The notes beneath the pieces were generated by a model. The model saw only the letters and a program-made list of their open reading frames with translations, did not search any database and had not been told where the DNA came from. From a virus (Duplodnaviria > Caudoviricetes): a stretch of 56,216 nucleotides of DNA. A program made the translations under genes and the position numbers. Shown piece after piece: positions 1,113-35,228 of this stretch. Where the stretch lies: positions 1 to 56,216 of IMG/VR virus record IMGVR_UViG_3300023174_002623. The stretch is one strand, 5' to 3'. Each line of letters starts with the position of its first letter. The first letter of the stretch is position 1.

Positions 1113-1185
1113 AATAATTTATTTAAAAATTCGGTATAGGAAAAAAATAAATAGACTAAAAAAAGACAATAGATATATATACTAA
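1099..1185 (+). CDS. 28-aa basic micro-protein MKIIKIIYLKIRYRKKINRLKKDNRYIY
   Basis: Not in the ORF track. ATG at 1099 overlaps the end of the upstream gene, and its TAA overlaps the carbamoyltransferase ATG (TAATG at 1183-1187), filling the gap exactly. Confidence 0.6.
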   Translation: MKIIKIIYLKIRYRKKINRLKKDNRYIY

Positions 1186-2609
1186 TGATTATTTTAGGAA
1201 TAAATGAAACATCCCATGATGCATCAGTTTCTCTAGTTAAAGATGGAGAAATCTTATTTGCTGGTCATGCAGAAAGATATAGCAAAACTAAAAATGATTG
1301 GTATATAGGAAATGATTTAGTTAATGATGCTTTAGAGTATGGCAATCCAGATTGTATAGCCTATTACGAGAAACCACTTCTAAAGGCCTCTAGACTTGTT
1401 TTAAGGGGTGGTTCTGGAGACTGGAGGCCAAGGCTCAATATCCAAGGCATACCAAGAAAATCATTTCCACACCATTATTCACATGCTTCTGCTGGGTACT
1501 ATACAAGTCCTTTTAAAGATGCTGTAATTGTAGTGCTTGATGCAATAGGAGAGTTTAATACCTCAACAGTCTGGGTAGGTGAAGGCAACAAGATTAAACT
1601 AAAGTATAAGAAAAACTATCCAGTATCATTTGGATTATTCTACTCAGCATTTACTCAGTTGATAGGACTAATGCCTAATCAAGAAGAATACATCATGATG
1701 GGCATGGCTGCTTATGGTAATCCAGAAAAATATGAACGTAAGGTATCGAATTACTTTCTTAGACATGATATGCAAAAATATAATTTCCATAAAGGAATTG
1801 TTGATTGGGATGAGCCAATTACAGAACAAGATAGGTTTGACATTGCAGCAGCAGTACAAAAAGTTTATGAATTAAGACTTAATGAGTTTATGCATTTTGC
1901 CTACAGCATAACTGGCAAAAACAATCTTGTTTTTATGGGTGGTTGTGCATTAAACTCTTCTGCTAATACTATACTTTGGAATATTTTTAAATCAGTATGG
2001 ATTATGCCAAATCCAGGAGATGCTGGCAGTTCGTTAGGCGCAGCAGCAGCATTATATGGAAAACACATCGAATGGAAGTCTCCATATCTTGGTCATGATC
2101 TTGGTGGAAAATATCCAGTTCAAAAAATTGTTGACGGTATATTAAAAGATGGAATAGTGGCAGTAGCAAGCGGAAGAGCAGAATATGGCCCACGAGCACT
2201 AGGAAACAGATCCATTCTGGCAGATCCAAGAGACCCAATTATAAAAGATAAAGTTAACTTAATAAAACAAAGAGAACTCTTTAGACCTTTTGCTCCAGTG
2301 GTTATTGAAGAACATGCATCAAAATGGTTTGATATGGACTTTACAAGCCCGTATATGCAATACACAGTTAAATGCTTAAAGCCAGATGTTATACCATCAG
2401 TTGTACATGCAGATGGAACATCCAGAGTTCAAACGGTAAATAAACAACAACACCCTGGACTATTTAAGGTATTAAATAAGTTCTATCTTGAAACTGGAGT
2501 ACCCGTACTTTTAAATACTAGCCTTAACATAAAAGGACAGCCATTGCTCAATGATAAAAAAGATATCATTGAATGGGAAAAAACATATAATTTTAAAATT
2601 ATCAACTAG
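1185..2609 (+). CDS. O-carbamoyltransferase, NodU/CmcH family
   Basis: Family motifs HDAS, AERYSK.KND, HHYSHA, DAIGE, MGMAAYG, GGCALN, GDAGSSLGAA, EYGPRALGNRS, RELFRPFAP, VHADGTSRVQTV, LNTSLN. Confidence 0.95.
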   Translation: MIILGINETSHDASVSLVKDGEILFAGHAERYSKTKNDWYIGNDLVNDALEYGNPDCIAYYEKPLLKASRLVLRGGSGDWRPRLNIQGIPRKSFPHHYSHASAGYYTSPFKDAVIVVLDAIGEFNTSTVWVGEGNKIKLKYKKNYPVSFGLFYSAFTQLIGLMPNQEEYIMMGMAAYGNPEKYERKVSNYFLRHDMQKYNFHKGIVDWDEPITEQDRFDIAAAVQKVYELRLNEFMHFAYSITGKNNLVFMGGCALNSSANTILWNIFKSVWIMPNPGDAGSSLGAAAALYGKHIEWKSPYLGHDLGGKYPVQKIVDGILKDGIVAVASGRAEYGPRALGNRSILADPRDPIIKDKVNLIKQRELFRPFAPVVIEEHASKWFDMDFTSPYMQYTVKCLKPDVIPSVVHADGTSRVQTVNKQQHPGLFKVLNKFYLETGVPVLLNTSLNIKGQPLLNDKKDIIEWEKTYNFKIIN

Positions 2610-3511
2610 ATGCTTTTAAACAGTTTTTGCCATTTTACTATTTGTTTATCCCAGGAATACTGTTTATTAAAAAAGTCTGATTGTTCTTTAAATATACCAG
2701 TTTCATATTCATCCCAATAGTTATCAATTGAATTGTTTAATAATTCTAGATATTTGTCAACTAATGTTTCTTGTTCATACTGAACTGGTACAGAAACTCC
2801 CCAACCACAACTTGTCTCAGGAATTGCTCCTAAATTTGTTGTCACAATCTTACATCCAGCAGCGCCAGCCTCAATCAAACTTAAACAAGATGTTTCTTCC
2901 CATATGCATGGGTAAGCAAAAATATGACATTCTTGTAATGCTTTAATAACATCTTCATTTGTTGCATATCCATGATAGACAACATTTTCCATATTCTTTG
3001 CTCTTTCAAATAAGTCTTCATACAAATGCTTGTTATCCTTGTCAAAATCATCACCATATATAATTGTTGATGAGTAAACATGAAGTTCAACATTTTTATT
3101 TTTTATTTTTTCCATAACATCTAGTAAAACTTTTAAGCCACGCCAGGGAGTGCTTGCATAGATTAATTTAATCTTACCTTGTTCTTTTTCTTTATACTCT
3201 ATATGATTAATTGCATTTTCTATTACATAGGATTTATCCAACGGTATGAAAGGTCTATTTTTCCAGTACATACTTAACTGATAATTTGAAACAAATATAG
3301 CACAATCTAACTTGTCGCTATATTCTTTTATACCAAGATTTCTGCTACTAAATTGATCAAAATGACCATGTTGCCATAAAACATTTTTCTTATCTTCTTC
3401 TATTATGTCAACATTTGTGTCATTTAGAATTAATTTTATATTATACTCATTAACGTCAATTCTTTTGTTTAGTTCCATGTAAAGCAATTCTGACCCACTG
3501 CTTGGAAGCAT
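2606..3511 (-). CDS. Glycosyltransferase, GT-B fold (GT4/Glycos_transf_1-like)
   Basis: N-terminal SGSE, IFVS, LIYASTPWRGL, and IFAYPCIWEETSCLSLIEAGAAG containing the EX7E motif. Convergent 4-nt overlap with the carbamoyltransferase. Confidence 0.9.
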   Translation of the reverse strand: MLPSSGSELLYMELNKRIDVNEYNIKLILNDTNVDIIEEDKKNVLWQHGHFDQFSSRNLGIKEYSDKLDCAIFVSNYQLSMYWKNRPFIPLDKSYVIENAINHIEYKEKEQGKIKLIYASTPWRGLKVLLDVMEKIKNKNVELHVYSSTIIYGDDFDKDNKHLYEDLFERAKNMENVVYHGYATNEDVIKALQECHIFAYPCIWEETSCLSLIEAGAAGCKIVTTNLGAIPETSCGWGVSVPVQYEQETLVDKYLELLNNSIDNYWDEYETGIFKEQSDFFNKQYSWDKQIVKWQKLFKSI

Positions 3512-3577: not shown

Positions 3578-4135
3578 TTATTTTGGAAATCTCTTTAGCC
3601 ATTTGCTCGTGGCACCCTTATTATAGGATGACCATGAACTCCAGTCCTTACCGCCTTTTGTCATGTGAAACACGATTTCAGCATTCTTAACTGGGCTAAA
3701 AAGTTCAGCATTTAAATCAAGATTGAATTTGTCTTTCCGATCTGGACCTAAATCACCGATCATGTTAATCTGGAAGATTCCATATGAAGAATCTCCTGTC
3801 TTAACATTGCCATTAAAAGCAAAGGGGCGACCATTAGATTCTGCCTTGGCAACAGCCCAAGCAGTCTTAAGTCCCTGTCCTTTAAATCCAACGGCTTTCA
3901 GTAATTCAACCAACTGGCTGTCAGTTAAACTTGTAGCGTCCGCATACTTAGCAAGCACCACATCAGTAGTAGGCTTAGAAAGCAAAAAAGCCGCTTTGTT
4001 GGCGGCAGGTTGACTTTCAGCGGTACTACTTAGTAAATTGTTCTTCATAGCATGAGCAGCACTTAGTCCATTATTTAATAATGACAAAGTAAGCACAGTT
4101 ACAAGAACCCCCGATAGTATTTTGTTGTCTCTCAA
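3578..4135 (-). CDS. Secreted lysozyme-like/lytic transglycosylase (cell-wall hydrolase)
   Basis: Hydrophobic signal ending in AHA; catalytic AKAES motif, SYGIFQIN, P..NA and WSSW motifs of SLT/lysozyme-like fold. TTG start preceded by AGGAGG. Confidence 0.85.
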   Translation of the reverse strand: MRDNKILSGVLVTVLTLSLLNNGLSAAHAMKNNLLSSTAESQPAANKAAFLLSKPTTDVVLAKYADATSLTDSQLVELLKAVGFKGQGLKTAWAVAKAESNGRPFAFNGNVKTGDSSYGIFQINMIGDLGPDRKDKFNLDLNAELFSPVKNAEIVFHMTKGGKDWSSWSSYNKGATSKWLKRFPK

Positions 4136-24735: not shown

Positions 24736-25308
24736 ATGGCATATGATATTAAATTAACAGCATTTCCACCAACTTTTGTTAATCAATATGTTGTTGAGCA
24801 ATTAAAACTGTTTGGTATTTTGAGCGGGTTTGAACAAATGACCCCAGTATTTCCAACAAGCCCAACAAATATAGAAGATGTGTTCAAGAACTATATCGGG
24901 GCCCCTGGAGTCTCAGATCCACTTCTTATTCAATATGAAAGATTAATTAGATTTAGGCCAAGCCCATTTTATAGAAATAAAAGAGAGCAATTAGTTTATT
25001 ACTTATACTGCACAGATTTATCAAAGATTAATGATTCCCATAGAATTATTACAGATGCCCTTGACCGTGAGGATTCTGCTGGACAAGACATAAACGCCTA
25101 CTGTGCTTCCGTTGCTACAGACGCACTTCCATTTAATACATTCTTTCATAATGTCAGGGTATATCAGGCAGATGAAACAAGAGACATCCTAGAACTTGCC
25201 TCAGCCAGAACGGTATATGCAAATAAACTTATTATTGAATACGACTATCATACTAAAGATATCATAGTTACAGGTCCAGACGGACTTACCAAACAAATAT
25301 ATGATTAA
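24736..25308 (+). CDS. Tail terminator-like protein
   Basis: Immediately upstream of the tail tube gene; TAGAAT 6 nt before the ATG. Confidence 0.5.
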   Translation: MAYDIKLTAFPPTFVNQYVVEQLKLFGILSGFEQMTPVFPTSPTNIEDVFKNYIGAPGVSDPLLIQYERLIRFRPSPFYRNKREQLVYYLYCTDLSKINDSHRIITDALDREDSAGQDINAYCASVATDALPFNTFFHNVRVYQADETRDILELASARTVYANKLIIEYDYHTKDIIVTGPDGLTKQIYD

Positions 25309-25314
25309 AAATGC

Positions 25315-25323
25315 TGTTATACT
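25315..25323 (+). promoter_or_regulatory. Extended -10 promoter for the major tail gene
   Basis: TGTTATACT just after the upstream stop; GAGGTG RBS before ATG 25386. Confidence 0.55.
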
Positions 25324-25385
25324 TGTTTTGAGGAAACACCCCAACAACTTAATATAGATTCTATTGAAAGTAGAGGTGAAAAAAT

Positions 25386-26027
25386 ATGGCATACACTCGT
25401 GGTACGTCTACTAACATTATTGTTGGTGCTGCAGCGCTTTTCGTAGCAGACACAACACTAACCCCTAACACCCTGCCTAGTTATGTAGCATCAGAGTCAT
25501 ACAGAGAGACAATCGCTGACGACACTGATTTTACTAACGTAGGTTATACAATGAACGGCCTTGAATTGCAGTTCCAACCAGACTTCGGCGAAGTACAGGT
25601 TGACCAACTTCTTGACGTTGCTAAGTTATACAAGCAAGGAATGCAAGTGAATATGGCAACGGCTTTTGCTGAAGCAACACTTGAGAACCTGCTTCTTGCA
25701 CTTGCTTACAACTCTGATCAGTTGTCAGCAGCAAATGGAAAGAACACATCTAACGGACAGTCACTTGACTTGTCTGCAGGTGATATTGGCGAATGTCCAG
25801 TAGAGCGTGGAATTATTGCTGTAGGTCCAGGTACAGGTGACTGTGCTGACTCAGCATACGTAGAGCGTGTTTACAGCGCATACCGTGCACTCTCAATTGA
25901 GAATGTAACAGTATCTGCAAAGCGTGACGAGGCTTCAATGTTTGAAGTTTCATTCCGTCTTCTTCCAGAAGATGTATCTGGTTCATATGGTAAGATCGTA
26001 GATCGTACCTGGACACCAGCAACATAA
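25386..26027 (+). CDS. Major tail (tube) protein
   Basis: NIIVGAAALF, VGYTMNGLELQFQPDFGEVQVDQL, AEATLENL, FEVSFRLLP; strong RBS and its own terminator. Confidence 0.88.
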   Translation: MAYTRGTSTNIIVGAAALFVADTTLTPNTLPSYVASESYRETIADDTDFTNVGYTMNGLELQFQPDFGEVQVDQLLDVAKLYKQGMQVNMATAFAEATLENLLLALAYNSDQLSAANGKNTSNGQSLDLSAGDIGECPVERGIIAVGPGTGDCADSAYVERVYSAYRALSIENVTVSAKRDEASMFEVSFRLLPEDVSGSYGKIVDRTWTPAT

Positions 26028-26044
26028 TCTAGTTTTAGATTAAT

Positions 26045-26081
26045 AACAGGCCCATCCCTTCGGGGGTGGGCTTTGTTGTTT
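26045..26081 (+). terminator. Intrinsic terminator after the tail tube gene
   Basis: GCCCATCCC-TTCG-GGGGTGGGC (cUUCGg tetraloop) followed by TTTGTTGTTT. Confidence 0.88.
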
Positions 26082-26084
26082 CTA

Positions 26085-26093
26085 TGATAGAAT
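26085..26093 (+). promoter_or_regulatory. Extended -10 promoter, leaderless start of the long chaperone
   Basis: TGATAGAAT 7 nt before ATG 26101; no SD. Confidence 0.6.
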
Positions 26094-26100
26094 AGATAGA

Positions 26101-26814
26101 ATGGCTACAGAGATATATAAAAAAGGTAATATTTTTTTAATTGACGGAATAGAATTAGAAATAATACCACTTAAGATAAAGTATTTACGGGAATTCATGT
26201 CTGCTTTTGCAGAGATGGATGGTGTAAAAAATGATGATGATGCTATTGATGTATTAACTAACTGTGTAAGAATTTGTATGAAACAATACTATCCAAAAAT
26301 ATCTAAAACAATTGCAGACATTGAAGATAATATAAACTTACCAACCATCTATCAAATAGTTGATTTTGCTGCGGGTATAAAAATTAACAAAAAGTCAGAA
26401 GAGCCAGTAAAAAAACAAGCAGAAAAAAGCGGGGCTACATGGGATGATCTAGATTTAGCATCTCTTGAATCAGAAGTATTTTTGCTGGGTATATGGAAAG
26501 ACTATGAAGAATTAGAAACAAACCTATCTATGCCAGAACTAATGGCTACTCTGGAAAGTAAAAGAGAATTAGAATATCAAGAAAAAAAGTTTTTGGCAGC
26601 AATACAAGGCGTTGATTTAGATAAAAACAGCGGTAGGGAAAAGGGCCAAAAAGAATGGGAAGACATGAAGGCTAGAGTCTTTAGTGGTGGTGCAACAGGA
26701 GATAGTAATGATGTTCTGGCACTACAAGGACAAAATGCTGTAAAGGCTGGATTTGGTATTGGAATGGGTCTTGATTATGAAGATGCAAGAGATCCAAGTC
26801 TTATGAAAAATTAG
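26101..26814 (+). CDS. Tail assembly chaperone, long GT-like in-frame form
   Basis: Between tail tube and tape measure genes. The first ~96 aa are paralogous to 26859-27191, followed by an extra helical domain (WDDLDLASLESEVFLLGIWKDYEELE...). Confidence 0.75.
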   Translation: MATEIYKKGNIFLIDGIELEIIPLKIKYLREFMSAFAEMDGVKNDDDAIDVLTNCVRICMKQYYPKISKTIADIEDNINLPTIYQIVDFAAGIKINKKSEEPVKKQAEKSGATWDDLDLASLESEVFLLGIWKDYEELETNLSMPELMATLESKRELEYQEKKFLAAIQGVDLDKNSGREKGQKEWEDMKARVFSGGATGDSNDVLALQGQNAVKAGFGIGMGLDYEDARDPSLMKN

Positions 26815-26822
26815 CCTATTCA

Positions 26823-26831
26823 TGCTATAAT
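26823..26831 (+). promoter_or_regulatory. Extended -10 promoter for the short chaperone and tape measure genes
   Basis: TGCTATAAT; AGGAGG before ATG 26859. Confidence 0.65.
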
Positions 26832-26858
26832 TGACGTAAACCTAAACAGGAGGAAATA

Positions 26859-27191
26859 ATGGCAACAACAGTACACGAGGGTACAGAACTGACTCTTATG
26901 GACGATACAAAAATCACAGTGAGACCACTTAAGATCTCATTGCTTCGTCCATTTTTGAAGAAGTTTGAGGGCATTGCAGAGGTGGCAGAAGATAATGATA
27001 AGTCTACAACTATTCTTATCGAATGCGTACAGATTGCTATGAAACAATACAAGCCAGAACTTGCAGAAGATATCAACAAGTTGGAAGAAGTTTTAGACCT
27101 TCCAACGGTATACAAGATTATTGAGGCTGCTTCTGGAATTAAATTGCAAGATGCAAATGCTTTGTTAAACACAGTACTTGCAAATAATTAA
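26859..27191 (+). CDS. Tail assembly chaperone, short G-like form
   Basis: 110 aa, directly upstream of the tape measure gene; PLKI, MKQY.P, LPTVY and GIK shared with the long form. Confidence 0.8.
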   Translation: MATTVHEGTELTLMDDTKITVRPLKISLLRPFLKKFEGIAEVAEDNDKSTTILIECVQIAMKQYKPELAEDINKLEEVLDLPTVYKIIEAASGIKLQDANALLNTVLANN

Positions 27192-27209
27192 ATAGAAGAG
27201 GTGTTGTAG

Positions 27210-30200
27210 ATGAGTGACGTTAATGCCAATATTGGGGTACATATTGATACCTCTGCGGCATTAGCAGAACTCAAAAATTTACAACGCCAGATTTCAACAT
27301 TTCATTCACAAATTTCAAAGTCCAGCGCTACTGCAGCGATGGCACAAAAAAATCTACAGACTAATCTACTTAATGCTGTAAATGCAACTGGTCAATTTCG
27401 TGCACAGATGGGTGTTGTCAGAACATCTACTGAGTCATTTACAAATGCGTTAGAAAAAAATAAACTCTCTATGAGAGACTACTTCCGCTATGCGGGAGGA
27501 GCGTCTAAAACATTTGGAAAGTTATTTAAATCTGAGTTTGACACTATTGGCAAGGTTGCTGAAGAGCGTGTCAAGAAGATGCAGACACAGTACATCAAGA
27601 TGGGTCGTGATGCATCTGGTGCAATGAGAGCAATGTCGATTACGCCAAACACTCTCAATATGAACGACTATGCTACAAAAACAGCATTAGCAGCACAAAA
27701 ACAAGCACTATTTAATCAGTTAGTTAAGCAAGGATCAACAAATCTTTTAAACTTTGGTAAGAATACACAGTGGGCTGGCCGACAGTTAATGGTTGGTTTC
27801 AGCGTACCACTTCTATACATTGGAAGTGCTGCTGGAAAAGTATTTATGGATCTTGAGCAACAGGCTCTTAAGTTTAAGCGTGTCTATGGTGATATGTTTA
27901 CAACAAGTGATCAAACAAATAAAGCACTTAAAGATGTTGAACTGCTGGCAAAAGAATTTACAAAGTATGGTGTTGCAGTTAGCAAGACTATGGAATTGGC
28001 AGCATCTGCTGCTGCAATGGGTAAGACTGGTTCAGAACTTACAGCACAAGTTGCACAGGCAACAAGACTTGCAGTTCTTGGAAATGTTGAACAAGAGCAA
28101 GCACTTGAAACAACAACATCATTAACTAATGCATTTGGTATTGCTGCTGAAGACCTTGCAAAGAAAATTGACTTCCTGAACTCAGTTGAAAACCAGACTG
28201 TAACATCTATTGAAGATTTAACAATTGCAATTCCAAAGGCTGGACCAGTTGTAAAGCAACTTGGTGGAGATGTAGAAGATTTAGCATTCTTCCTTACTGC
28301 AATGAAGGAAGGTGGAATCAATGCATCAGAAGGTGCTAACGCACTTAAGTCTGGCCTTGCATCTTTAATTAACCCAACTAAAAAAGCAGCAGCAATGCTC
28401 AATGGCTATGGTGTTAATATTAAGGCAATTGTTGAGGGCAATCAAGGAGATATTAAGAATACTGTTATTCAATTTGCACAGGCACTAGATACTTTAGCAC
28501 CACTTGATAGATCAAGAGCAATTGAACAACTATTTGGTAAGTTCCAGTTTGCACGTCTATCAACACTGTTTCAAAATATTACAAAAGAAGGAACACAGGC
28601 TAATAGAGTTCTAGAACTTTCTAAAATGGAAGTAGAAGAACTTGCAATCCTTTCTGAGCGAGAATTAAAAACAGTAGAAAATGCTGTAGGAACAAACTTT
28701 AAAGAAGCAATTGAAAGCCTTAAGTTAACAATTGCTCCAATTGGTAAAACATTTTTAGAAGCAGTAACTCCAGTTGTAAAAGCAGTTGCAGGATTGCTTG
28801 AAAAGTTTAATGGTCTTGGAGATGGAACAAAGAAGTTTATAGTAATCGCTTCAACTCTTGTTGGTATTATTGGTCCTACACTTTTGATGGCATTTGGTTT
28901 GGTTGCAAATGGCGCAGCCAATATAATTAAACTATTTTTAGGACTACGTTCAGGATTCTTAAAACTTGGCGGTAACTCTAAGATTCTTGCCGAGCAAACA
29001 AATTATCTTAATTCAGAACAACTTGAGGCTGCAACAGTTGCCACATCTTTAAATCAGGCACATAACAGACTCACACAATCATTTGTACTTGAAGCATCAG
29101 CAGTAAAAGCACTTAGAAATGCCTATGTAGATGCAACAGTCGCTGCTACAAATTTTGCAGCAGCAAACCCAGGAATGATGATGCCAGGATTTAAACCTGG
29201 TGCAAAAGGTGCAAAACCAAAAGGATTTGCATCTGGAACAACTGGATTGCCAGGACCAAAGGGTGCAGGAGATATTATTCCTATTCTTGGTGCTCCTGGA
29301 GAAGCAATTATCCCAGCAGACATTTCACAAGATAAAAGATTTAAGCCTTTAATTGAAGCACTTGTTTCAGGGGATATTAAGGGATATGAAAATGGCACAA
29401 CTGGTCTTTCTTTTGATGGAAAAGAATATAATGCAAAAACTGCACCAGGTGCAAAAAACATTAAATCTTTCTTAGATGAACTTATAAAGAATCCAGATGG
29501 AACACTTACATACGTTGATCCAAAAACTAAAGAAGCCTCAACATTTACAGCAAAAAGATTACGTGAAGTATTTGACTATAGAACACAGCCAGGAAAGAAC
29601 TTCACTGTATCAGATATTAAGCGCTCACTTGATATTGGTTCAGGAGCAAGAGGATCTGGACGTGGAACATCAAGACCAGAGTGGATCTCCAAGTTAGTAA
29701 AAGATGCTGCAGGCAAATCAAATGTTCTTGCAGAACAACAGGCTATAGAAAAAGCACTCAAAGATTCTGGTTCTGCAAACCTTTCACAGTCACAAAAAAA
29801 TAACCTATATGGATTACAGGCATCACACATTGTTGAAGAGCGTGATTCTGCTGGTAAGAAGGTTTGGCGATCAGCAAATATTGTGCCAGATCCAGGGTAT
29901 ATCAATAATTATATTAATACAGTAAAGGGTAAACTTGGTAAAGAACTGTTAGCAATGACAGATGACCAACTTAAGTCTTTGAATATTGACAAAGCAGAGT
30001 TAAAGAAGATTGCATCAGGAACACACCCAACAACAGCAAATGCTGCTAACACATTAAAAAACATTGCACAATATCAAATTGGACAAAATCCAAATGCATC
30101 TGGTATTTATCAGGCACAAGCAGTTGTTGCTGGTATTGATTATAGAATGAAAAATAATGTTTATAAGGGTGGATTAAAAACCCTTGCACAGATGTACCCA

Positions 30201-33200
30201 ACAAATAAAAAGATTCTTGCAGAACTTGCAGTTGCAAAGGGTGAAGTATTAGAAACAGCAACTGGAAAGAAAAAGACTGTAACTGGCCAAACTGGTAAGG
30301 CAAAGCCTGCTGGTAAAAATATAACTGCTAGTCCAAGAGATACACGTGTTATTGATAAGAAGAGCGTAAGAAGAGTATTCCCATATGGAATTAAGGGAAT
30401 GAGAGTTGCTGGTGCTATTGATGGATTTGACGGTACTGCAACTAAGGGTGGTCTAGGATTTGATAGAGGACTTGGAACAACAAGTCAAGAGATATTAAAA
30501 CAAACACGTATACAAGAAAAAGCATTAAAAGAAAATATTGCAGCAACACAAGATGAAACTGCTGCAACAAAGGCTGCAACTACAGAAACAAAAGATAATT
30601 CAAAACAAACAAAGTTATCAAAAGAAAATATTAAGGCTTTTGGAGCAAAAGCAAATGTTGGTGTTGGAGCATTAAGTGGTCTTAATATAGCAGCATCATT
30701 TGCTGGCGGTAAAGTTGGAGAGATGGCACAAAAGATTATGCCATTTATTTTTGGTTTACAGGGAATATTGATGTTACTTCCACTACTAATGAATCCGTTA
30801 ATTGGAATACCTGTTGCTATTGGAGCAATAGTCGCTGGTATTTGGTTATTTAAAAAGAAACAAGATGAGGCAATAAAGGCAGAAGCAAGACTTGTAGATG
30901 AATTATATGCAACAACAAAGAAAATGCAGCAGGTCGGAGAAATATCTGGCAAGGTTGGCGCATCACAACTAATGGCTCGTAAGAGAGAATCTGCAACTGG
31001 AGACTTCAATGTTCAGCGTAAGGGAATTAAATTTGGAAGTGCATTTTTACAAAGCGAAGTAGGAAAAGCAGATGTAGGAGCATTTGAAGCAAGATTTAAG
31101 GCTATGCCAGATATTGCTATGAAAGAGTTTTCTCTTAAGTTAGCAAGTTATGTTTCAGATGGTGTAATAGATGCAGCACAGGCAGCAAGCATTGCAGATC
31201 AAGTTGGTATTCAGTTTAAAAATAAAACAATTGGAATTAAATTACAAGGCCAACTTCAAAAATTATTAACAGTTGATGGAAAAGATTTAACTACAGAGCC
31301 ATTTGAAATTAGAATACAAATTGCACAAGAGACAGTAGATCAGTTTACAAATATTGCGCCAAACTTGCAAGCACAACTAGATTCTGTTGAAAGAGAACTT
31401 AAGAGTGGCAAATTTGATGCAGCCTTGCTACCACCTCCAATATTAGAAACTTCAGTAACATATACACCAGAACAAAATGCAAAAGCCTTGGAAGAATATG
31501 ATAGACAAGTACAGGCTCAGAATGAAGCACTAGATGGTTATAATAAAGCAAAAGAAAAAATAGATGAAATCAATGCTGCGCTAAAGAAATATAACGCATT
31601 TGCTGCAGCAATGGCAAGCCAATCATTTGAAAGTATACAGGCACAAATTGATGCAATTGATGTAAGCACTAGCAAGACTATTGATAAATTAAAAGCAGAC
31701 AAAGCAGCAACAAAAGATTTGGCTGCCCAGGCGCTAATTCAAAAAGAAATAGATAGGCTAGAAACTAAAAAACTTGAGTCAGTTATAAAACTCAGAAATA
31801 TGAATAAGCAGGTAACAAGAGGAATTGAAGAACAACTTGCTTTGGCAGATGCTTATGAAAAAACTGACTTCTTTGTTGCAAGTGCTGAAGCAGTTACAAC
31901 ACGTTTTAAGGGAACAAAACAAGAAACAGATGCAAAGGCATTTTTAGATAGATCAGCAGCCATGGGTGAAACAACCATGAGAGCAAAAATAGAAGCAGTT
32001 GTTTCTTCAGGGCAGTTTGGGCCTAGCCAGGCAACAGAGTTCCTTAATCTGTTTGGAACAGATAATGAAAACTTAGATAAAACATTTAATACTTATTTAA
32101 CAGTACAAGGAATGGAAGATCTAGATAAGGTTCAAACCATTTTAGGTGATTTTGCAGATAAGGATTTAGCAAAAGACATAATTATAAAAATGGGTGGACT
32201 ATCAGATGCAGAATTCCAAGCGCAATATTCAACACTAGAATTATTAAAACAATTTGATGGTGAAGAAATTAACATGGAAATTGCATTAAAAAATAATCCA
32301 ACCCTTCTTTCAGATGTAACAAAATTAAATTCTGCAGTTGAGGCAATTGCTATGACACCAGATACAACATTTAAAACAATAGAAATTGCATTAAAAAATG
32401 TTGTTCTTGAAGGCGAAGATAAAAGTTTTACTGAACAAGGACTTCAGGGCCTATCTGACAATTGGGAATATTATAAAGGATTAGATCCAGAATTAAGAAA
32501 AACTGCAATACAAACATATATCTCTTTGTTTAAAACAATATTTGCAGATGCAGATTCAAGAAAACAATGGGCTGCAAATATTGCAGAGACAGCATCTGCT
32601 GGTATTGCAAATGAGCAGGCTAGAGATCAAATTAGAACCATTACATACAATACAGTAATTGATTCAAAAGGAAACTTTACTGAACAAGGAAAGAAGACCC
32701 TTGTTGAAGATGTTCAAAAGCAGACCGAAGATATTATTGGGTATATGAATATGATTAGCAAGTTAACAAGTGGTAAAGGTGGCGGTGGCGGTACTAACAC
32801 AAGAAATACATTCCTTGATAATATTTTAGATAAAATAAGAAGAGTAAGAGATGCAAGTGCTGACATAGTAGCAAAAGATCCACTAGGAGAACTAAGAAGG
32901 CTTATTGAAAAAGGCAATGGTGAGATAACAATATTTGATGGTTTAGATCAGCAGATATCAAAACTAAAAGCACCACAAGAATTTATTGATTTTATTGCTA
33001 GTCTAGATCCTAAAGGTAAAAAGGGTGCTATTGATGCACTAGAAACATACCTTGATGCTGGAAAACTAAAAGATGGAATTGTTGATTTAACTAAAAATGG
33101 AAAATTACTCTTAGATATATTTAGAGAAGGAGTAATTGGAGATTTTGAAAGTGATTTAAGAAAAGCAACAAATGGTTTAATTGCACAAAAATCACAGTTT

Positions 33201-35228
33201 ATTTTACTTAATGCAATAGTAAAAGATAATGCACTATCAGCAGAAATGCTTGCAGATGCAAATTTTGCCCTAGCATTAAGTTCAGCAAAAACAAAAGAAG
33301 AAGTCAACAGACTTGTTGATGCATTTAAAGCACAGAAAGCAGCACAAGAAGATTTAGCAATGACTCAAAACCCATTAAAATCTTTACAAGATGCATTTTC
33401 TGTTGTAGAAGATAAAATAAATAAATTCTTCTCATTAGCAAATGAAGCAATAGAAGCAAAATTTGCTAGAAGAATACTTGCTGGCGAAAGAGCGGTAGAG
33501 GCTGCTCAAAAAGAAGTTGAAAAAGCACAAGACAATGTGGAAAAAATTCAAAAACACATTGATGGAATTCAAGCAGGAATAGATAAAAAACAAAGAGAAA
33601 TTGAAGAAAAAATTACTCGCCCAATTGAGGAATTCCAAAAAACAATTTCTTCAATTGAAGATACTATTAATACTCAGTTTGATAAGCCTATTGCTGTATT
33701 GCAAGAAGAGTCTTCAGACCTTGCAAATGATTTAACACTTCTTGACCGTGCAGCAGATGAAATTAATAAAAAATATGATGCTCAAGAAGAAGCATTAACT
33801 AAGATTTCTGAAATCAATAAAGATTTAATCGCACAAGAAAAACAAAGAATCTCCCTTGCTGACACATTAACGTCTGGAGATATTTCTGCAGCAGCACAGG
33901 CTGTTCAAGATATGCGTGGAGCAGCAGCAGATTCAGCATCTGGCTCACAGATGGATATGCTAAAGGCAGCAAGACAAAAAGAACTTGACAATCAAAGAAC
34001 TGCATCTGGACTTACAAGAGTTCAAATTGAGCAGCGTCAGTTTGAAATAAGTCAGCAAATATTCAAACTTGAAGAAGGCCGTGAAGTACTTGAAAAACAA
34101 ATTTCAAATATTAAAGAATTTTCTATTCTTCCACTTGAAAGAGAAAGAGAAAGACTTTCAAGACTTATTCGTGACGAAGAAGATAAAATTTATAATATTA
34201 CAAATGGTATTGGTGTCGCTGAGGAACTAAACCTCAAACTTGCTAATGATAAACTTGCTGCTGCACTAGCAACTCTTGATATTAAGAAAGCAGAACTACT
34301 TGCTGTAGAAGAAGAAAGACAAAAAGAATTAGATCACCTTGATGACTTAAAGTTGCAATGGATAGAAGTTAAGGGTGGAATTGCAGCAGCAGAACTTGAA
34401 ACAATTAACTTGCAAGCAGAAATTCAAAAAGCAATAGACTTAGCAGCACAACTTGCAGCATTATTTGCTTCCATGACAATTCCTGGTGGCGGAATTACTC
34501 CTCCAAAAGATCCAAATACATCACCTGAAGCACAAAAAGAAGCAGAAGATGCAGCGAAGGCAGCAACTGATGCAGCAAACGCAGCATCAGCAGAAGCAGA
34601 TGCAGCAACAGCAGCAGCACTAGAAGCAGCAGATGCTGTTGCAGCAGCCCTAGCAGCAGCAGATAAAATTTCTGCAGATCTTGCAGCAAGTAAAGCAAAC
34701 CTTTCTCCAAAGGCAAAAAAGATTTTAGCAGATGCTGCAGCAGCAGAACAAGCAAGACTTGCTGCGCTTGAAAAACAAAGATTGCAGAATGAAGCAAAAG
34801 CAGCAGGGTACGCAAATAGAGGAACACAGACTAACTATTCTTCTGGTGGAATGGTTACTAAATATCTTGCTAGTGGTGGAATGATTTCACCAAGCGTTAT
34901 GCCAAGTTTGGGATTAGACATGGGACCAAGCGTTATGCCAAGTTTGGGATTAAATATGGGACCAAGCGTTATGCCAAGACTAGGATCAGATATAGTACCA
35001 GCAATGCTAACCCCTGGAGAATTTGTAATGAGTAGATACGCTGTTTCTAAGTATGGTCTTGATAAAATGAATGCCATAAATAATGGCTCTTATGCGGGTG
35101 AAACAGTGTATAATTATAATCTAAGCGTTAATGTTAAATCTGGTGCAAATCCAGACGATATTGCAAGAGTGGTAATGACACAGATTAAACAAATAGACTC
35201 ACAAAGAATTAGGACACAAAGAATATAA
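27210..35228 (+). CDS. Tape measure protein (2672 aa)
   Basis: Longest ORF; TP901-like core (AVLGN, EGANALKSGL, IEQLFGK), two hydrophobic segments, long coiled coils, C-terminal DIVPAMLTPGEFV. Confidence 0.93.
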   Translation: MSDVNANIGVHIDTSAALAELKNLQRQISTFHSQISKSSATAAMAQKNLQTNLLNAVNATGQFRAQMGVVRTSTESFTNALEKNKLSMRDYFRYAGGASKTFGKLFKSEFDTIGKVAEERVKKMQTQYIKMGRDASGAMRAMSITPNTLNMNDYATKTALAAQKQALFNQLVKQGSTNLLNFGKNTQWAGRQLMVGFSVPLLYIGSAAGKVFMDLEQQALKFKRVYGDMFTTSDQTNKALKDVELLAKEFTKYGVAVSKTMELAASAAAMGKTGSELTAQVAQATRLAVLGNVEQEQALETTTSLTNAFGIAAEDLAKKIDFLNSVENQTVTSIEDLTIAIPKAGPVVKQLGGDVEDLAFFLTAMKEGGINASEGANALKSGLASLINPTKKAAAMLNGYGVNIKAIVEGNQGDIKNTVIQFAQALDTLAPLDRSRAIEQLFGKFQFARLSTLFQNITKEGTQANRVLELSKMEVEELAILSERELKTVENAVGTNFKEAIESLKLTIAPIGKTFLEAVTPVVKAVAGLLEKFNGLGDGTKKFIVIASTLVGIIGPTLLMAFGLVANGAANIIKLFLGLRSGFLKLGGNSKILAEQTNYLNSEQLEAATVATSLNQAHNRLTQSFVLEASAVKALRNAYVDATVAATNFAAANPGMMMPGFKPGAKGAKPKGFASGTTGLPGPKGAGDIIPILGAPGEAIIPADISQDKRFKPLIEALVSGDIKGYENGTTGLSFDGKEYNAKTAPGAKNIKSFLDELIKNPDGTLTYVDPKTKEASTFTAKRLREVFDYRTQPGKNFTVSDIKRSLDIGSGARGSGRGTSRPEWISKLVKDAAGKSNVLAEQQAIEKALKDSGSANLSQSQKNNLYGLQASHIVEERDSAGKKVWRSANIVPDPGYINNYINTVKGKLGKELLAMTDDQLKSLNIDKAELKKIASGTHPTTANAANTLKNIAQYQIGQNPNASGIYQAQAVVAGIDYRMKNNVYKGGLKTLAQMYPTNKKILAELAVAKGEVLETATGKKKTVTGQTGKAKPAGKNITASPRDTRVIDKKSVRRVFPYGIKGMRVAGAIDGFDGTATKGGLGFDRGLGTTSQEILKQTRIQEKALKENIAATQDETAATKAATTETKDNSKQTKLSKENIKAFGAKANVGVGALSGLNIAASFAGGKVGEMAQKIMPFIFGLQGILMLLPLLMNPLIGIPVAIGAIVAGIWLFKKKQDEAIKAEARLVDELYATTKKMQQVGEISGKVGASQLMARKRESATGDFNVQRKGIKFGSAFLQSEVGKADVGAFEARFKAMPDIAMKEFSLKLASYVSDGVIDAAQAASIADQVGIQFKNKTIGIKLQGQLQKLLTVDGKDLTTEPFEIRIQIAQETVDQFTNIAPNLQAQLDSVERELKSGKFDAALLPPPILETSVTYTPEQNAKALEEYDRQVQAQNEALDGYNKAKEKIDEINAALKKYNAFAAAMASQSFESIQAQIDAIDVSTSKTIDKLKADKAATKDLAAQALIQKEIDRLETKKLESVIKLRNMNKQVTRGIEEQLALADAYEKTDFFVASAEAVTTRFKGTKQETDAKAFLDRSAAMGETTMRAKIEAVVSSGQFGPSQATEFLNLFGTDNENLDKTFNTYLTVQGMEDLDKVQTILGDFADKDLAKDIIIKMGGLSDAEFQAQYSTLELLKQFDGEEINMEIALKNNPTLLSDVTKLNSAVEAIAMTPDTTFKTIEIALKNVVLEGEDKSFTEQGLQGLSDNWEYYKGLDPELRKTAIQTYISLFKTIFADADSRKQWAANIAETASAGIANEQARDQIRTITYNTVIDSKGNFTEQGKKTLVEDVQKQTEDIIGYMNMISKLTSGKGGGGGTNTRNTFLDNILDKIRRVRDASADIVAKDPLGELRRLIEKGNGEITIFDGLDQQISKLKAPQEFIDFIASLDPKGKKGAIDALETYLDAGKLKDGIVDLTKNGKLLLDIFREGVIGDFESDLRKATNGLIAQKSQFILLNAIVKDNALSAEMLADANFALALSSAKTKEEVNRLVDAFKAQKAAQEDLAMTQNPLKSLQDAFSVVEDKINKFFSLANEAIEAKFARRILAGERAVEAAQKEVEKAQDNVEKIQKHIDGIQAGIDKKQREIEEKITRPIEEFQKTISSIEDTINTQFDKPIAVLQEESSDLANDLTLLDRAADEINKKYDAQEEALTKISEINKDLIAQEKQRISLADTLTSGDISAAAQAVQDMRGAAADSASGSQMDMLKAARQKELDNQRTASGLTRVQIEQRQFEISQQIFKLEEGREVLEKQISNIKEFSILPLERERERLSRLIRDEEDKIYNITNGIGVAEELNLKLANDKLAAALATLDIKKAELLAVEEERQKELDHLDDLKLQWIEVKGGIAAAELETINLQAEIQKAIDLAAQLAALFASMTIPGGGITPPKDPNTSPEAQKEAEDAAKAATDAANAASAEADAATAAALEAADAVAAALAAADKISADLAASKANLSPKAKKILADAAAAEQARLAALEKQRLQNEAKAAGYANRGTQTNYSSGGMVTKYLASGGMISPSVMPSLGLDMGPSVMPSLGLNMGPSVMPRLGSDIVPAMLTPGEFVMSRYAVSKYGLDKMNAINNGSYAGETVYNYNLSVNVKSGANPDDIARVVMTQIKQIDSQRIRTQRI
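34889..34978 (+). repeat. 36-nt tandem repeat, 2.5 copies, in the tape measure C-terminus
   Basis: ACCAAGCGTTATGCCAAGTTTGGGATTA(G/A)A(C/T)ATGGG at 34889 and 34925, partial at 34961; encodes PSVMPSLGL(D/N)MG. Confidence 0.9.

Follow-up and report, generated by a model that had tools for sequence, protein, structure and literature searches.

A probable two-gene tail assembly chaperone in place of the G/GT frameshift in a clade of uncultured phages related to Streptomyces phages

Organisation of the chaperone locus

The analysis presented here concerns two adjacent genes that lie between the tail tube and tape measure genes of IMG/VR record IMGVR_UViG_3300023174_002623, a stretch of phage DNA (the window) that was analysed over its whole length of 56,216 bases, has a G+C content of 36.5% and is estimated to be about half complete. 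Most long-tailed phages produce an abundant tail assembly chaperone, gpG, and a scarce extended form, gpGT, from a single locus by means of a -1 ribosomal frameshift. The G/GT frameshift is among the most conserved of viral recoding events and is usually explained as a device that fixes the ratio of the two proteins. In the window this position is occupied by two separate genes, the long one first and the short one second, and the initial annotation had read them as a G/GT pair apparently made by gene duplication rather than by frameshifting. Both the presence of two genes and their order were confirmed by the coordinates of the open reading frames (ORFs). The features of the locus are listed below; lengths are in amino acids (aa) or nucleotides (nt).

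25386-26027 (+): gene for the major tail (tube) protein, 213 aa, an ORF that is the upstream neighbour of the chaperone genes
26048-26083 (+): terminator-like hairpin (26048-26073; 11 pairs, 7 of them G-C, loop of 4) with a T-rich tail, TGTTGTTTCT, behind the tube gene
26085-26093 (+): extended -10-like element TGATAGAAT before the long gene, a predicted promoter, 7 nt from the ATG at 26101
26101-26814 (+): putative long tail assembly chaperone gene, 237 aa in a single frame, assigned from the ORF, homology and an AlphaFold2 model
26823-26831 (+): extended -10-like element TGCTATAAT before the short gene; the promoter scan gives a TG-extended promoter-like site at 26803-26831
26848-26853 (+): Shine-Dalgarno (SD) sequence AGGAGG of the short gene, 5 nt before the ATG at 26859
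26859-27191 (+): putative short tail assembly chaperone gene, 110 aa, of G type and without a slip site, assigned from the ORF and PHROG family phrog_10504
27210-35228 (+): gene for the tape measure protein, 2672 aa (Pfam PhageMin_Tail, E 4.6e-27)

The stop codon of the short gene is separated from the ATG of the tape measure gene by only 18 nt (27192-27209). The statement that this gap leaves no room for a T frame also proved correct, as both other frames across the 3' end of the short gene contain several stop codons. When the long protein was searched against all 56 kb of the record, only the long and short genes matched, and there was no second T-like region. The tube protein upstream matches phrog_2175 (E 3.5e-31) and, weakly, phrog_885, 'major tail protein', and its syntenic genes in phages Coruscant and Faust are annotated as major tail protein.

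Relationship of the two proteins to G and T

The long protein consists of a G-like N-terminal domain (residues 1 to about 100), a linker, and a T-like C-terminal domain (about 113-237). Homology between its first 96 or so residues and the short protein had been proposed from a set of common motifs, and pairwise alignment shows it to be significant: BLASTP aligned residues 1-95 of the long protein with 1-96 of the short one at 36/96 identities (38%), 67% positives and E 8e-23, with MAT, PLKI, MKQY.P, LPT.Y.I and GIK all present in the alignment. Both N-terminal parts fall in phrog_10504 (short protein, E 2.6e-21); a second family, phrog_10474, with a profile of 86 positions, is matched by the long protein at residues 131-193 (E 3e-15).

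At the nucleotide level, megablast of positions 25000-28500 against deposited phages gave zero matches. Searching the same phages by tblastn returned 130 records, 127 from Streptomyces phages and 3 from Rhodococcus phages, with a best listed E of 1e-34, and among the matches listed the long protein was matched in two pieces in 40/40 rows. The matched genes are often annotated as 'tail assembly chaperone', an annotation made by position and similarity and not by experiment. In both Coruscant and Faust the N-terminal piece is the G gene (frame 1), placed directly behind the major tail protein gene, and the C-terminal piece is in frame 3 (-1), overlaps the end of G and extends to the tape measure gene; in the Coruscant record G and T are annotated as separate genes. 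Residues from about 101 to 193 of the long protein (T match from about 113 to 193) are 53% identical to the T frame of Coruscant and 49% identical to that of Faust, and for this reason the extra domain is taken to be a T domain, as the initial annotation had anticipated. After GIKIN, the linker of the long protein aligns to the -1 reading of Faust, and the C-terminal tail of the short protein, QDANALLNTVLANN, resembles the zero-frame tail NDPNLLAAAVLAGQN of the frameshift-type G proteins. By alignment, the long protein is colinear with the predicted G-T trans-frame product of these relatives. The window phage is an uncultured, long-tailed (siphovirus-type) phage, kin to the large Streptomyces phages of Stanwilliamsviridae.

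Distribution of the fused and frameshift states

A survey of related genomes for frameshift and duplicated states had been put forward as a check on the reading, and both states were found. Five scans of viral contigs yielded 273 loci which, together with the window, Coruscant and Faust, made 276, and these were classified by the frames of their tblastn matches. Many loci represent the same contig fetched twice, so that distinct pairs of N (G-type) and T proteins number 157. They are distributed as follows.

N-T in frame, then a second N: 203 loci, 110 distinct
N-T in frame, cut by the contig end: 10 loci, 7 distinct
Single N with T in the -1 frame: 63 loci, 40 distinct (38 besides Coruscant and Faust)

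A second G gene thus accompanies the fusion in 110/110 distinct fused loci with complete context, and in the first seven fused-but-cut loci inspected the contig ends within about 125 nt. None of the 276 loci showed a mixed or intermediate state such as N-T(frameshift)-N. A further class of seven loci, 'in frame with a stop', was rejected because the alignments had extended beyond the true stop codon. The spacing of the two chaperone genes is variable, being 172 nt in two relatives (L022 and L023) and 26-69 nt in others, and the extra DNA in L022 and L023 sits upstream of the conserved TGCTATAAT. In a library of representatives at 50% identity, the 150 best matches comprised 94 to the T part only (median 97.5 aa), 41 to the N part only (median 106 aa), 11 that were partial across the junction and 4 with both domains near full length; some of the single-part matches may be fragments.

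The difference in state is matched by the presence or absence of the slip site. In the frameshifting relatives a slip site C_CCA_AAY lies in the G frame, within the G/T overlap, where it encodes 'DPN' after GIKLN. Among the 33 distinct frameshift loci listed, 25 have C_CCA_AAC, 6 have C_CCA_AAT, one has A_AAC_CCA and one, Coruscant, has none. The sequence CCCAAAY was found in none of the 117 distinct long genes and in none of the 105 distinct short genes, and the G-type and T-type parts of the long gene are in one frame with no stop between them. A separate observation on Coruscant (L001, 3288-3345) is that its T frame is open across the end of G, but the overlap lacks any X_XXY_YYZ heptamer; a frameshift site in this phage, should there be one, would be non-canonical.

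Start signals of the two genes

The arrangement of start signals described for the window reads in the sequence as claimed: TGATAGAAT, just behind the terminator, is separated by 7 nt from the ATG of the long gene, which has no purine-rich SD, and in the short gene TGCTATAAT is followed by AGGAGG and, 5 nt further on, by the ATG. We compared these signals over distinct 60-nt upstream sequences, of which there were 99 for long genes, 96 for short genes and 29 for frameshift-type G genes. The pattern TGnTAnnnT is found upstream of 98/99 long genes, 96/96 short genes and 13/29 frameshift-type G genes. From the end of this element to the start codon there are 5-9 nt in 92 of the long genes and 14-15 nt in 6, mostly 23-31 nt in the short genes, and 23-30 nt in 12 of the 13 frameshift-type G genes (47 nt in the other). 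GGAGG or AGGAG at -20 to -4 occurs before 0/99 long genes, 92/96 short genes and 27/29 frameshift-type G genes, and even a 4-base SD core in that interval is found in 0/99 of the long-gene upstream sequences. In the long gene TGnTAnnnT comes directly after the T run of the terminator, and the hairpin is at the same place, with differing stem sequences, in the relatives examined. No terminator was found between the long and short genes in the window or in the relatives examined, and in some relatives the -10-like element of the short gene overlaps the stop codon of the long gene.

The spacing of the -10-like element would place the start of transcription of the long gene at the AUG or within a few bases of it, and this points to an mRNA that is leaderless or nearly so. 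Leaderless mRNAs are common in actinobacteria, and such an mRNA would need an AUG start. The long gene starts with ATG in 115/117 cases and the short gene in 108/110; TTG is the start in 33/40 frameshift-type G genes (for example L193, L198 and L201). In frameshifting relatives the single G gene is preceded by a terminator, a -10 element, CCTAGGAGG and the start, in that order, and in L163, L164, L179 and Coruscant, among others, the -10 element is that of the short gene. Because the layout of the frameshift-type G gene equals that of the short gene, it is suggested that the short gene has retained the ancestral signals and that the leader of the long gene has been shortened. As the short gene combines a strong SD with a position behind both -10-like elements, and only one element and no SD serve the long gene, these start signals would be expected to give a large excess of the short protein.

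The leaders of the short gene and the frameshift-type G genes contain a conserved self-complementary motif (26841-26853 in the window) that overlaps the SD. It is CCTATATAGGAGG or TCCTAGGAGGA in relatives and CCTAAACAGGAGG in the window; a small anti-SD hairpin and a palindrome bound by a protein are two possible readings of it.

Matching RNA sequences were also found. Matches came from 24 sequencing runs, all as contigs and with at most 0.28 of words shared, and four RNA runs from two studies (X1 to X4) were compared. The depth of such contigs cannot rank genes and uncovered parts prove nothing, so none of the following was used for the protein ratio. When summed, the depth of the contigs was high across the tube gene and dropped at about 25998-26065; over most of the long gene it was 0-23 in X1, X3 and X4 and higher over the short gene, and X2 was irregular. 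Contigs of X1 spanned 25917-26662 and 26723-27142, and RNA-library contigs of relatives thus bridge the tube and long genes and the long and short genes.

Phylogeny and rates of divergence

The tree of the T domain was built from 52 rows (37 fused and 15 frameshift) taken from the 157 pairs, after leaving out T parts shorter than 80 aa and any row with more than 80% identity to one that was kept. In this tree the fused state forms one side of one branch, with a Shimodaira-Hasegawa-like approximate likelihood-ratio test (SH-aLRT) value of 95, and requires a single change. With the Streptomyces phages as root, the fused clade falls within the frameshifters. As far as one short domain can tell, therefore, the two-gene state appears to be derived and to have arisen once.

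In the tree of the N domain (86 rows, those under 90 aa left out), the long-gene domains and the short proteins each form one group, with support of 94 and 91, respectively. A tree that joins these two groups has a log-likelihood 7.3 above that of the free quick search and is not rejected (approximately unbiased test, p-AU 0.636), so that duplication within the lineage is the better-fitting reading, without being proven.

The paralogues have diverged asymmetrically, the G-type domain of the long gene (26101-26400) evolving faster than the short gene (26859-27158) and the T domain. The mean of the pairwise identities over 35 genomes is lowest for the long N domain, at 0.49, compared with 0.66 for the short protein and 0.65 for the T domain. 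In 585/595 genome pairs the short protein is better conserved than the long N domain, although these pairs are not independent. The two copies within a genome are only 28-45% identical in these 35 genomes, and there is consequently no sign of gene conversion.

Predicted folds and complex

Structures were predicted with AlphaFold2 from alignments built in this analysis, and the mean predicted local distance difference test (pLDDT) values were 84.5 for the long protein and 70.3 for the short one. Structure prediction of both proteins had been among the checks first envisaged, and it gave a matching order of secondary structure in the long N domain and the short protein, each G-type part having two strands and four to five helices in the same order. 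Compared with 48,161 PDB chains, the long model matched best 3klu_A, YqbN (Z 6.0, root-mean-square deviation (rmsd) 3.8, 85 residues aligned), which we take to be a chaperone homologue. Its second match was 2ob9_B, the HK97 tail assembly chaperone (Z 5.1, rmsd 4.5, 80 aligned); these were the only matches with Z of at least 5, and the next best had 4.1. The top match of the short model was also 3klu_A (Z 5.8, rmsd 4.0, 85 aligned). In BFVD we found a 'Tail assembly chaperone' (E 1.2e-3, TM 0.73 on target) and the 'Tail assembly protein GT' of phage N15 (E 0.017, probability 0.93); rows for T4-type 'baseplate hub' proteins in the same database were not significant (E 1.2-1.4). An alignment-profile search of PDB sequences gave nothing meaningful, the best E being 0.23. 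Taken together, the fold matches are consistent with a chaperone fold, short of proof.

Prediction of a complex between the T domain (residues 105-237) and the tube protein gave a score of 0.33 (runs of 0.57, 0.33 and 0.29), compared with 0.02 for the best of three controls. Contact agreement among the runs was at least 23% and partner pLDDT at least 38. The mark applied to such scores is reached by 116/157 solved complexes and by 2/215 mismatched pairs, and it is reached at a score of 0.60 or under by only 18/157 solved complexes and by both of the passing mismatches.

Discussion

It is suggested here that the ancestor of the clade carried a single G gene that contained a C_CCA_AAY slip site and was followed by a T region in the -1 frame. 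The G unit may then have been duplicated, with T coming into frame in the upstream copy and the SD-containing leader being lost from it, and the downstream copy would have retained the G tail along with the -10 element and SD of the ancestor, while its slip site and its T region disappeared. In the present arrangement the tape measure protein would be coated by an abundant G-type chaperone, the product of the short gene. The long gene would supply a one-frame equivalent of the G-T product, whose G-like domain joins the coat and whose T domain recruits the tube protein. We infer that the ratio of the proteins is now set by transcription, the short gene being read from two putative promoters, and by initiation, a leaderless AUG in the one gene as opposed to a strong SD in the other, and no longer by the frequency of slipping. 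These roles are proposed by analogy with lambda, in which, according to the available text of PMC5009743, G binds the tape measure protein and T binds the tube protein. We consider it probable that the two genes are tail assembly chaperones of the kind set out in this explanation. The wider proposition, that the clade is a very large and abundant group of uncultured phages, probably of freshwater actinobacteria, and that it lost the frameshift exactly once, by duplication and division of labour between a leaderless, low-output long gene and a short gene with the ancestral promoter and SD, seems to us evenly poised.

Several results weigh against this interpretation or against parts of it. Neither protein has a Pfam-A family above threshold: the sole match of the long protein is a sub-threshold one to DUF4778 (18.2 bits, cut-off 27), and the short protein has none at E of 0.1 or less. 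Foldseek of the model against the PDB found nothing at E of 0.001 or less, 2ob9 is missing among the 50 matches listed for the short model, and Z values of 5-6 are modest, since those below 8 may reflect a common helical arrangement. In the complex prediction the T domain is poorly folded and the support is weak only. With regard to expression, the consensus scan, which requires a match at -35, did not list the TGATAGAAT site, and the region contains 5 promoter-like sites against a mean of 5.7 in shuffled sequence, which is no excess. The case for the start signals rests on conservation in relatives, because the promoter scan does no better than shuffles. Of the claim that each gene has its own promoter, the conservation of the elements stands (98/99 and 96/96) and the scan lends it no help; their activity as promoters is presumed. 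Nor does a leaderless mRNA by itself mean a scarce protein, because in actinobacteria such mRNAs can be well translated. Finally, the free quick search of the N domain placed the short clade beside the frameshift-type G genes of L163, L164 and L179 (SH-aLRT 85), with the long N domain outside. If true, this grouping would imply that the duplication is older, that rates are unequal or that the long copy is of foreign origin.

Other explanations of the locus have to be weighed on the same evidence. The grouping just described is the main argument for supposing that no duplication took place here and that the long gene, or its N domain, is older or came from another phage to stand beside a resident G. 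It is in keeping with this that the N parts of L163 (48%) and L164 (42%) are the closest to the short protein by tblastn, and that the long N domain is far more diverged than the short protein. However, the tree joining the long N and short groups has the higher likelihood and is not rejected, and a faster rate in the long N domain can alone pull that domain outward. The T domain of the fused clade, moreover, lies among environmental frameshifters and not with a distant group, and the intermediate N-T(frameshift)-N was seen in no locus. A foreign or older long gene is therefore held to be unlikely, and duplication in the lineage is preferred; of the original claim of origin by duplication, the paralogy is well founded (38% identity, E 8e-23), and its occurrence in place is favoured by the better tree likelihood only and is not proven. 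A different objection accepts the two genes but not the excess of the short protein: the long protein might be made at a similar level, or the two G-type domains might have taken on different jobs, such as binding different parts of the tape measure protein. The conserved -10-like element of the long gene's own, directly at the AUG, would fit this, as would the changed constraint implied by an N domain that evolves faster and has diverged to 28-45% identity with the short protein. Against it, a near-perfect SD precedes 92/96 short genes and 0/99 long genes, the short gene is downstream of both promoter-like elements with no terminator between, and in lambda the ratio matters for assembly, as stated in the available text of PMC5009743. 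On balance we judge the absence of a ratio to be quite unlikely.

Two further alternatives concern the reading frame of the long gene. Recoding might persist there, a -1 slip or transcriptional slippage at runs of A yielding an extra product of the size of G. The window has an A7 run (26409-26415) and an A6 run (26424-26429) exactly at the G/T junction, where GTA AAA AAA CAA forms an in-frame A_AAA_AAA heptamer and the -1 frame, judged by eye, reaches a TGA after about 10 codons. These runs are not conserved, however, close relatives having GTA AAA GAA, ATC AAA GAA or GTT ACC AAA, and on that ground the candidate for a residual slip site was dropped. Heptamers of the form X_XXY_YYZ are present within codons 85-125 in only 25/117 distinct long genes and are of varied A/T-rich types, a frequency that is expected because the DNA is 30-35% G+C. 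We regard persistent recoding as very improbable. The A-rich nature of the junction might also suggest that the in-frame fusion is a homopolymer error of sequencing or assembly in an ordinary frameshift locus. All 117 distinct fused genes are in frame, though, in independent metagenomes and with differing nucleotides at the junction, and the second G gene is found in all 110 fused loci where the contig reaches far enough. Such consistency across contigs refutes this reading, to which we attach virtually no probability. The preferred explanation thus remains that of two in-frame chaperone genes derived from a frameshifting ancestor.

The locus can be compared with several known systems. Like the G/GT genes of lambda and the pairs of Coruscant and Faust, the window genes lie between the tube and tape measure genes, and they share with lambda a short and a long form with a G-type domain in common; in Coruscant and Faust both the G part and the T part are also homologous in sequence. 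In contrast to these systems, the window has no frameshift and no slip site, and its long form is a separate gene that is placed first. It also differs in that the G-type domains are not identical, being 38% identical (28-45% across the 35 genomes), and in having two genes with different start signals. Shared chaperone domain, one gene with an added part and no frameshift: the window agrees in these respects with the two-gene chaperone described for gp143 and gp144 of Bacillus phage 0305phi8-36 (Hardies et al. 2007, PMC2147016). In the available part of that report these are likewise two separate genes near the tape measure gene with one shared domain and an extra part in one of them, the shared domain being C-terminal in gp143 and N-terminal in gp144. 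By the same source, 0305phi8-36 belongs to a different lineage, that of a large Bacillus phage, its pair is one gene away from the tape measure gene, and the part available describes neither a frameshifting sister group nor start signals. Some T4-like phages have a short gene and a long fused gene (Vladimirov et al. 2022, as summarised in the available text of PMC10885494), but these are myoviruses of another lineage and were compared by description only. The nesting of the fused clade among frameshifting relatives argues for an origin independent of both the 0305phi8-36 and the T4-like pairs, descriptions being what was compared. In Microbacterium phages of cluster EA two chaperone ORFs seem to be separately expressed (Jacobs-Sera et al. 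2020, PMC7302621); as far as the available text of that paper goes, these are separate G and T ORFs, unlike the fused G-T gene and second G gene of the window.

The principle of a two-gene chaperone was already published in 2007 and 2022 and is therefore not new, and our literature searches found no description of the two-gene chaperones of this clade. What the clade offers is the occurrence of the frameshifting and two-gene states in close lineages, separated by a single transition in the T tree, with the ancestral slip site, promoter-like element and SD still recognisable. The purpose of the frameshift could thus be approached by swapping cassettes between relatives and measuring the ratio. 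If the explanation is true, the clade and its sister lineages that still frameshift would form a paired system made by nature, in which the G/GT frameshift is seen to be a ratio-setting device and nothing more, and it could serve to ask what makes recoding persist so widely elsewhere. Relaxed constraint on the rare subunit would in that case be what the faster change in the long copy's G-type domain reflects. There are also consequences for annotation, as frameshift predictors and 'join' annotations are unsuited to the two-gene clade, and its 'hypothetical proteins' of 237 and about 110 aa can be named.

Host and other features of the window

The cultured relatives infect Streptomyces and Rhodococcus. 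A search with a single protein found the gene in four contigs of metagenome-assembled genomes, labelled Nanopelagicales, Acidimicrobiaceae (two contigs from one such genome) and Flavipsychrobacter, although the binning of phage contigs gives only a weak hint of the host. Small shares of the stretch were also present in RNA runs sampled from estuaries, lakes and other fresh waters. It is plausible that the host is a freshwater actinobacterium.

Other genes recognised in the window encode a portal protein, a prohead protease, the tape measure protein, a DnaB-type helicase, a primase, a DnaE-type polymerase, RecA and a class II ribonucleotide reductase; no tRNA genes were found in its 56,216 bases. 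Base composition at the locus is uneven, with G+C of 0.28-0.33 in the N-terminal part of the long gene, about 0.36-0.40 in the short gene and 0.44 in the tube gene, against a genome average of 0.365. A foreign origin was considered on these figures; the tube gene is the outlier among them, and nothing was concluded. An antisense ORF of 115 aa (26825-27172, minus strand) lies within the short chaperone gene and is purely mechanical, with nothing supporting it. As a rule of thumb, tail length is about 0.15 nm per residue of the tape measure protein, and by this rule its 2672 aa predict a tail of about 400 nm. At the left end of the record a carbamoyltransferase gene (1185-2606, plus strand) is followed by a group 1 glycosyltransferase gene (2609-3511, minus strand) and then by the gene of a lysozyme-like SLT_3 protein (3581-4135, minus strand); those at 1185-3511 are possible auxiliary or surface-modifying genes.

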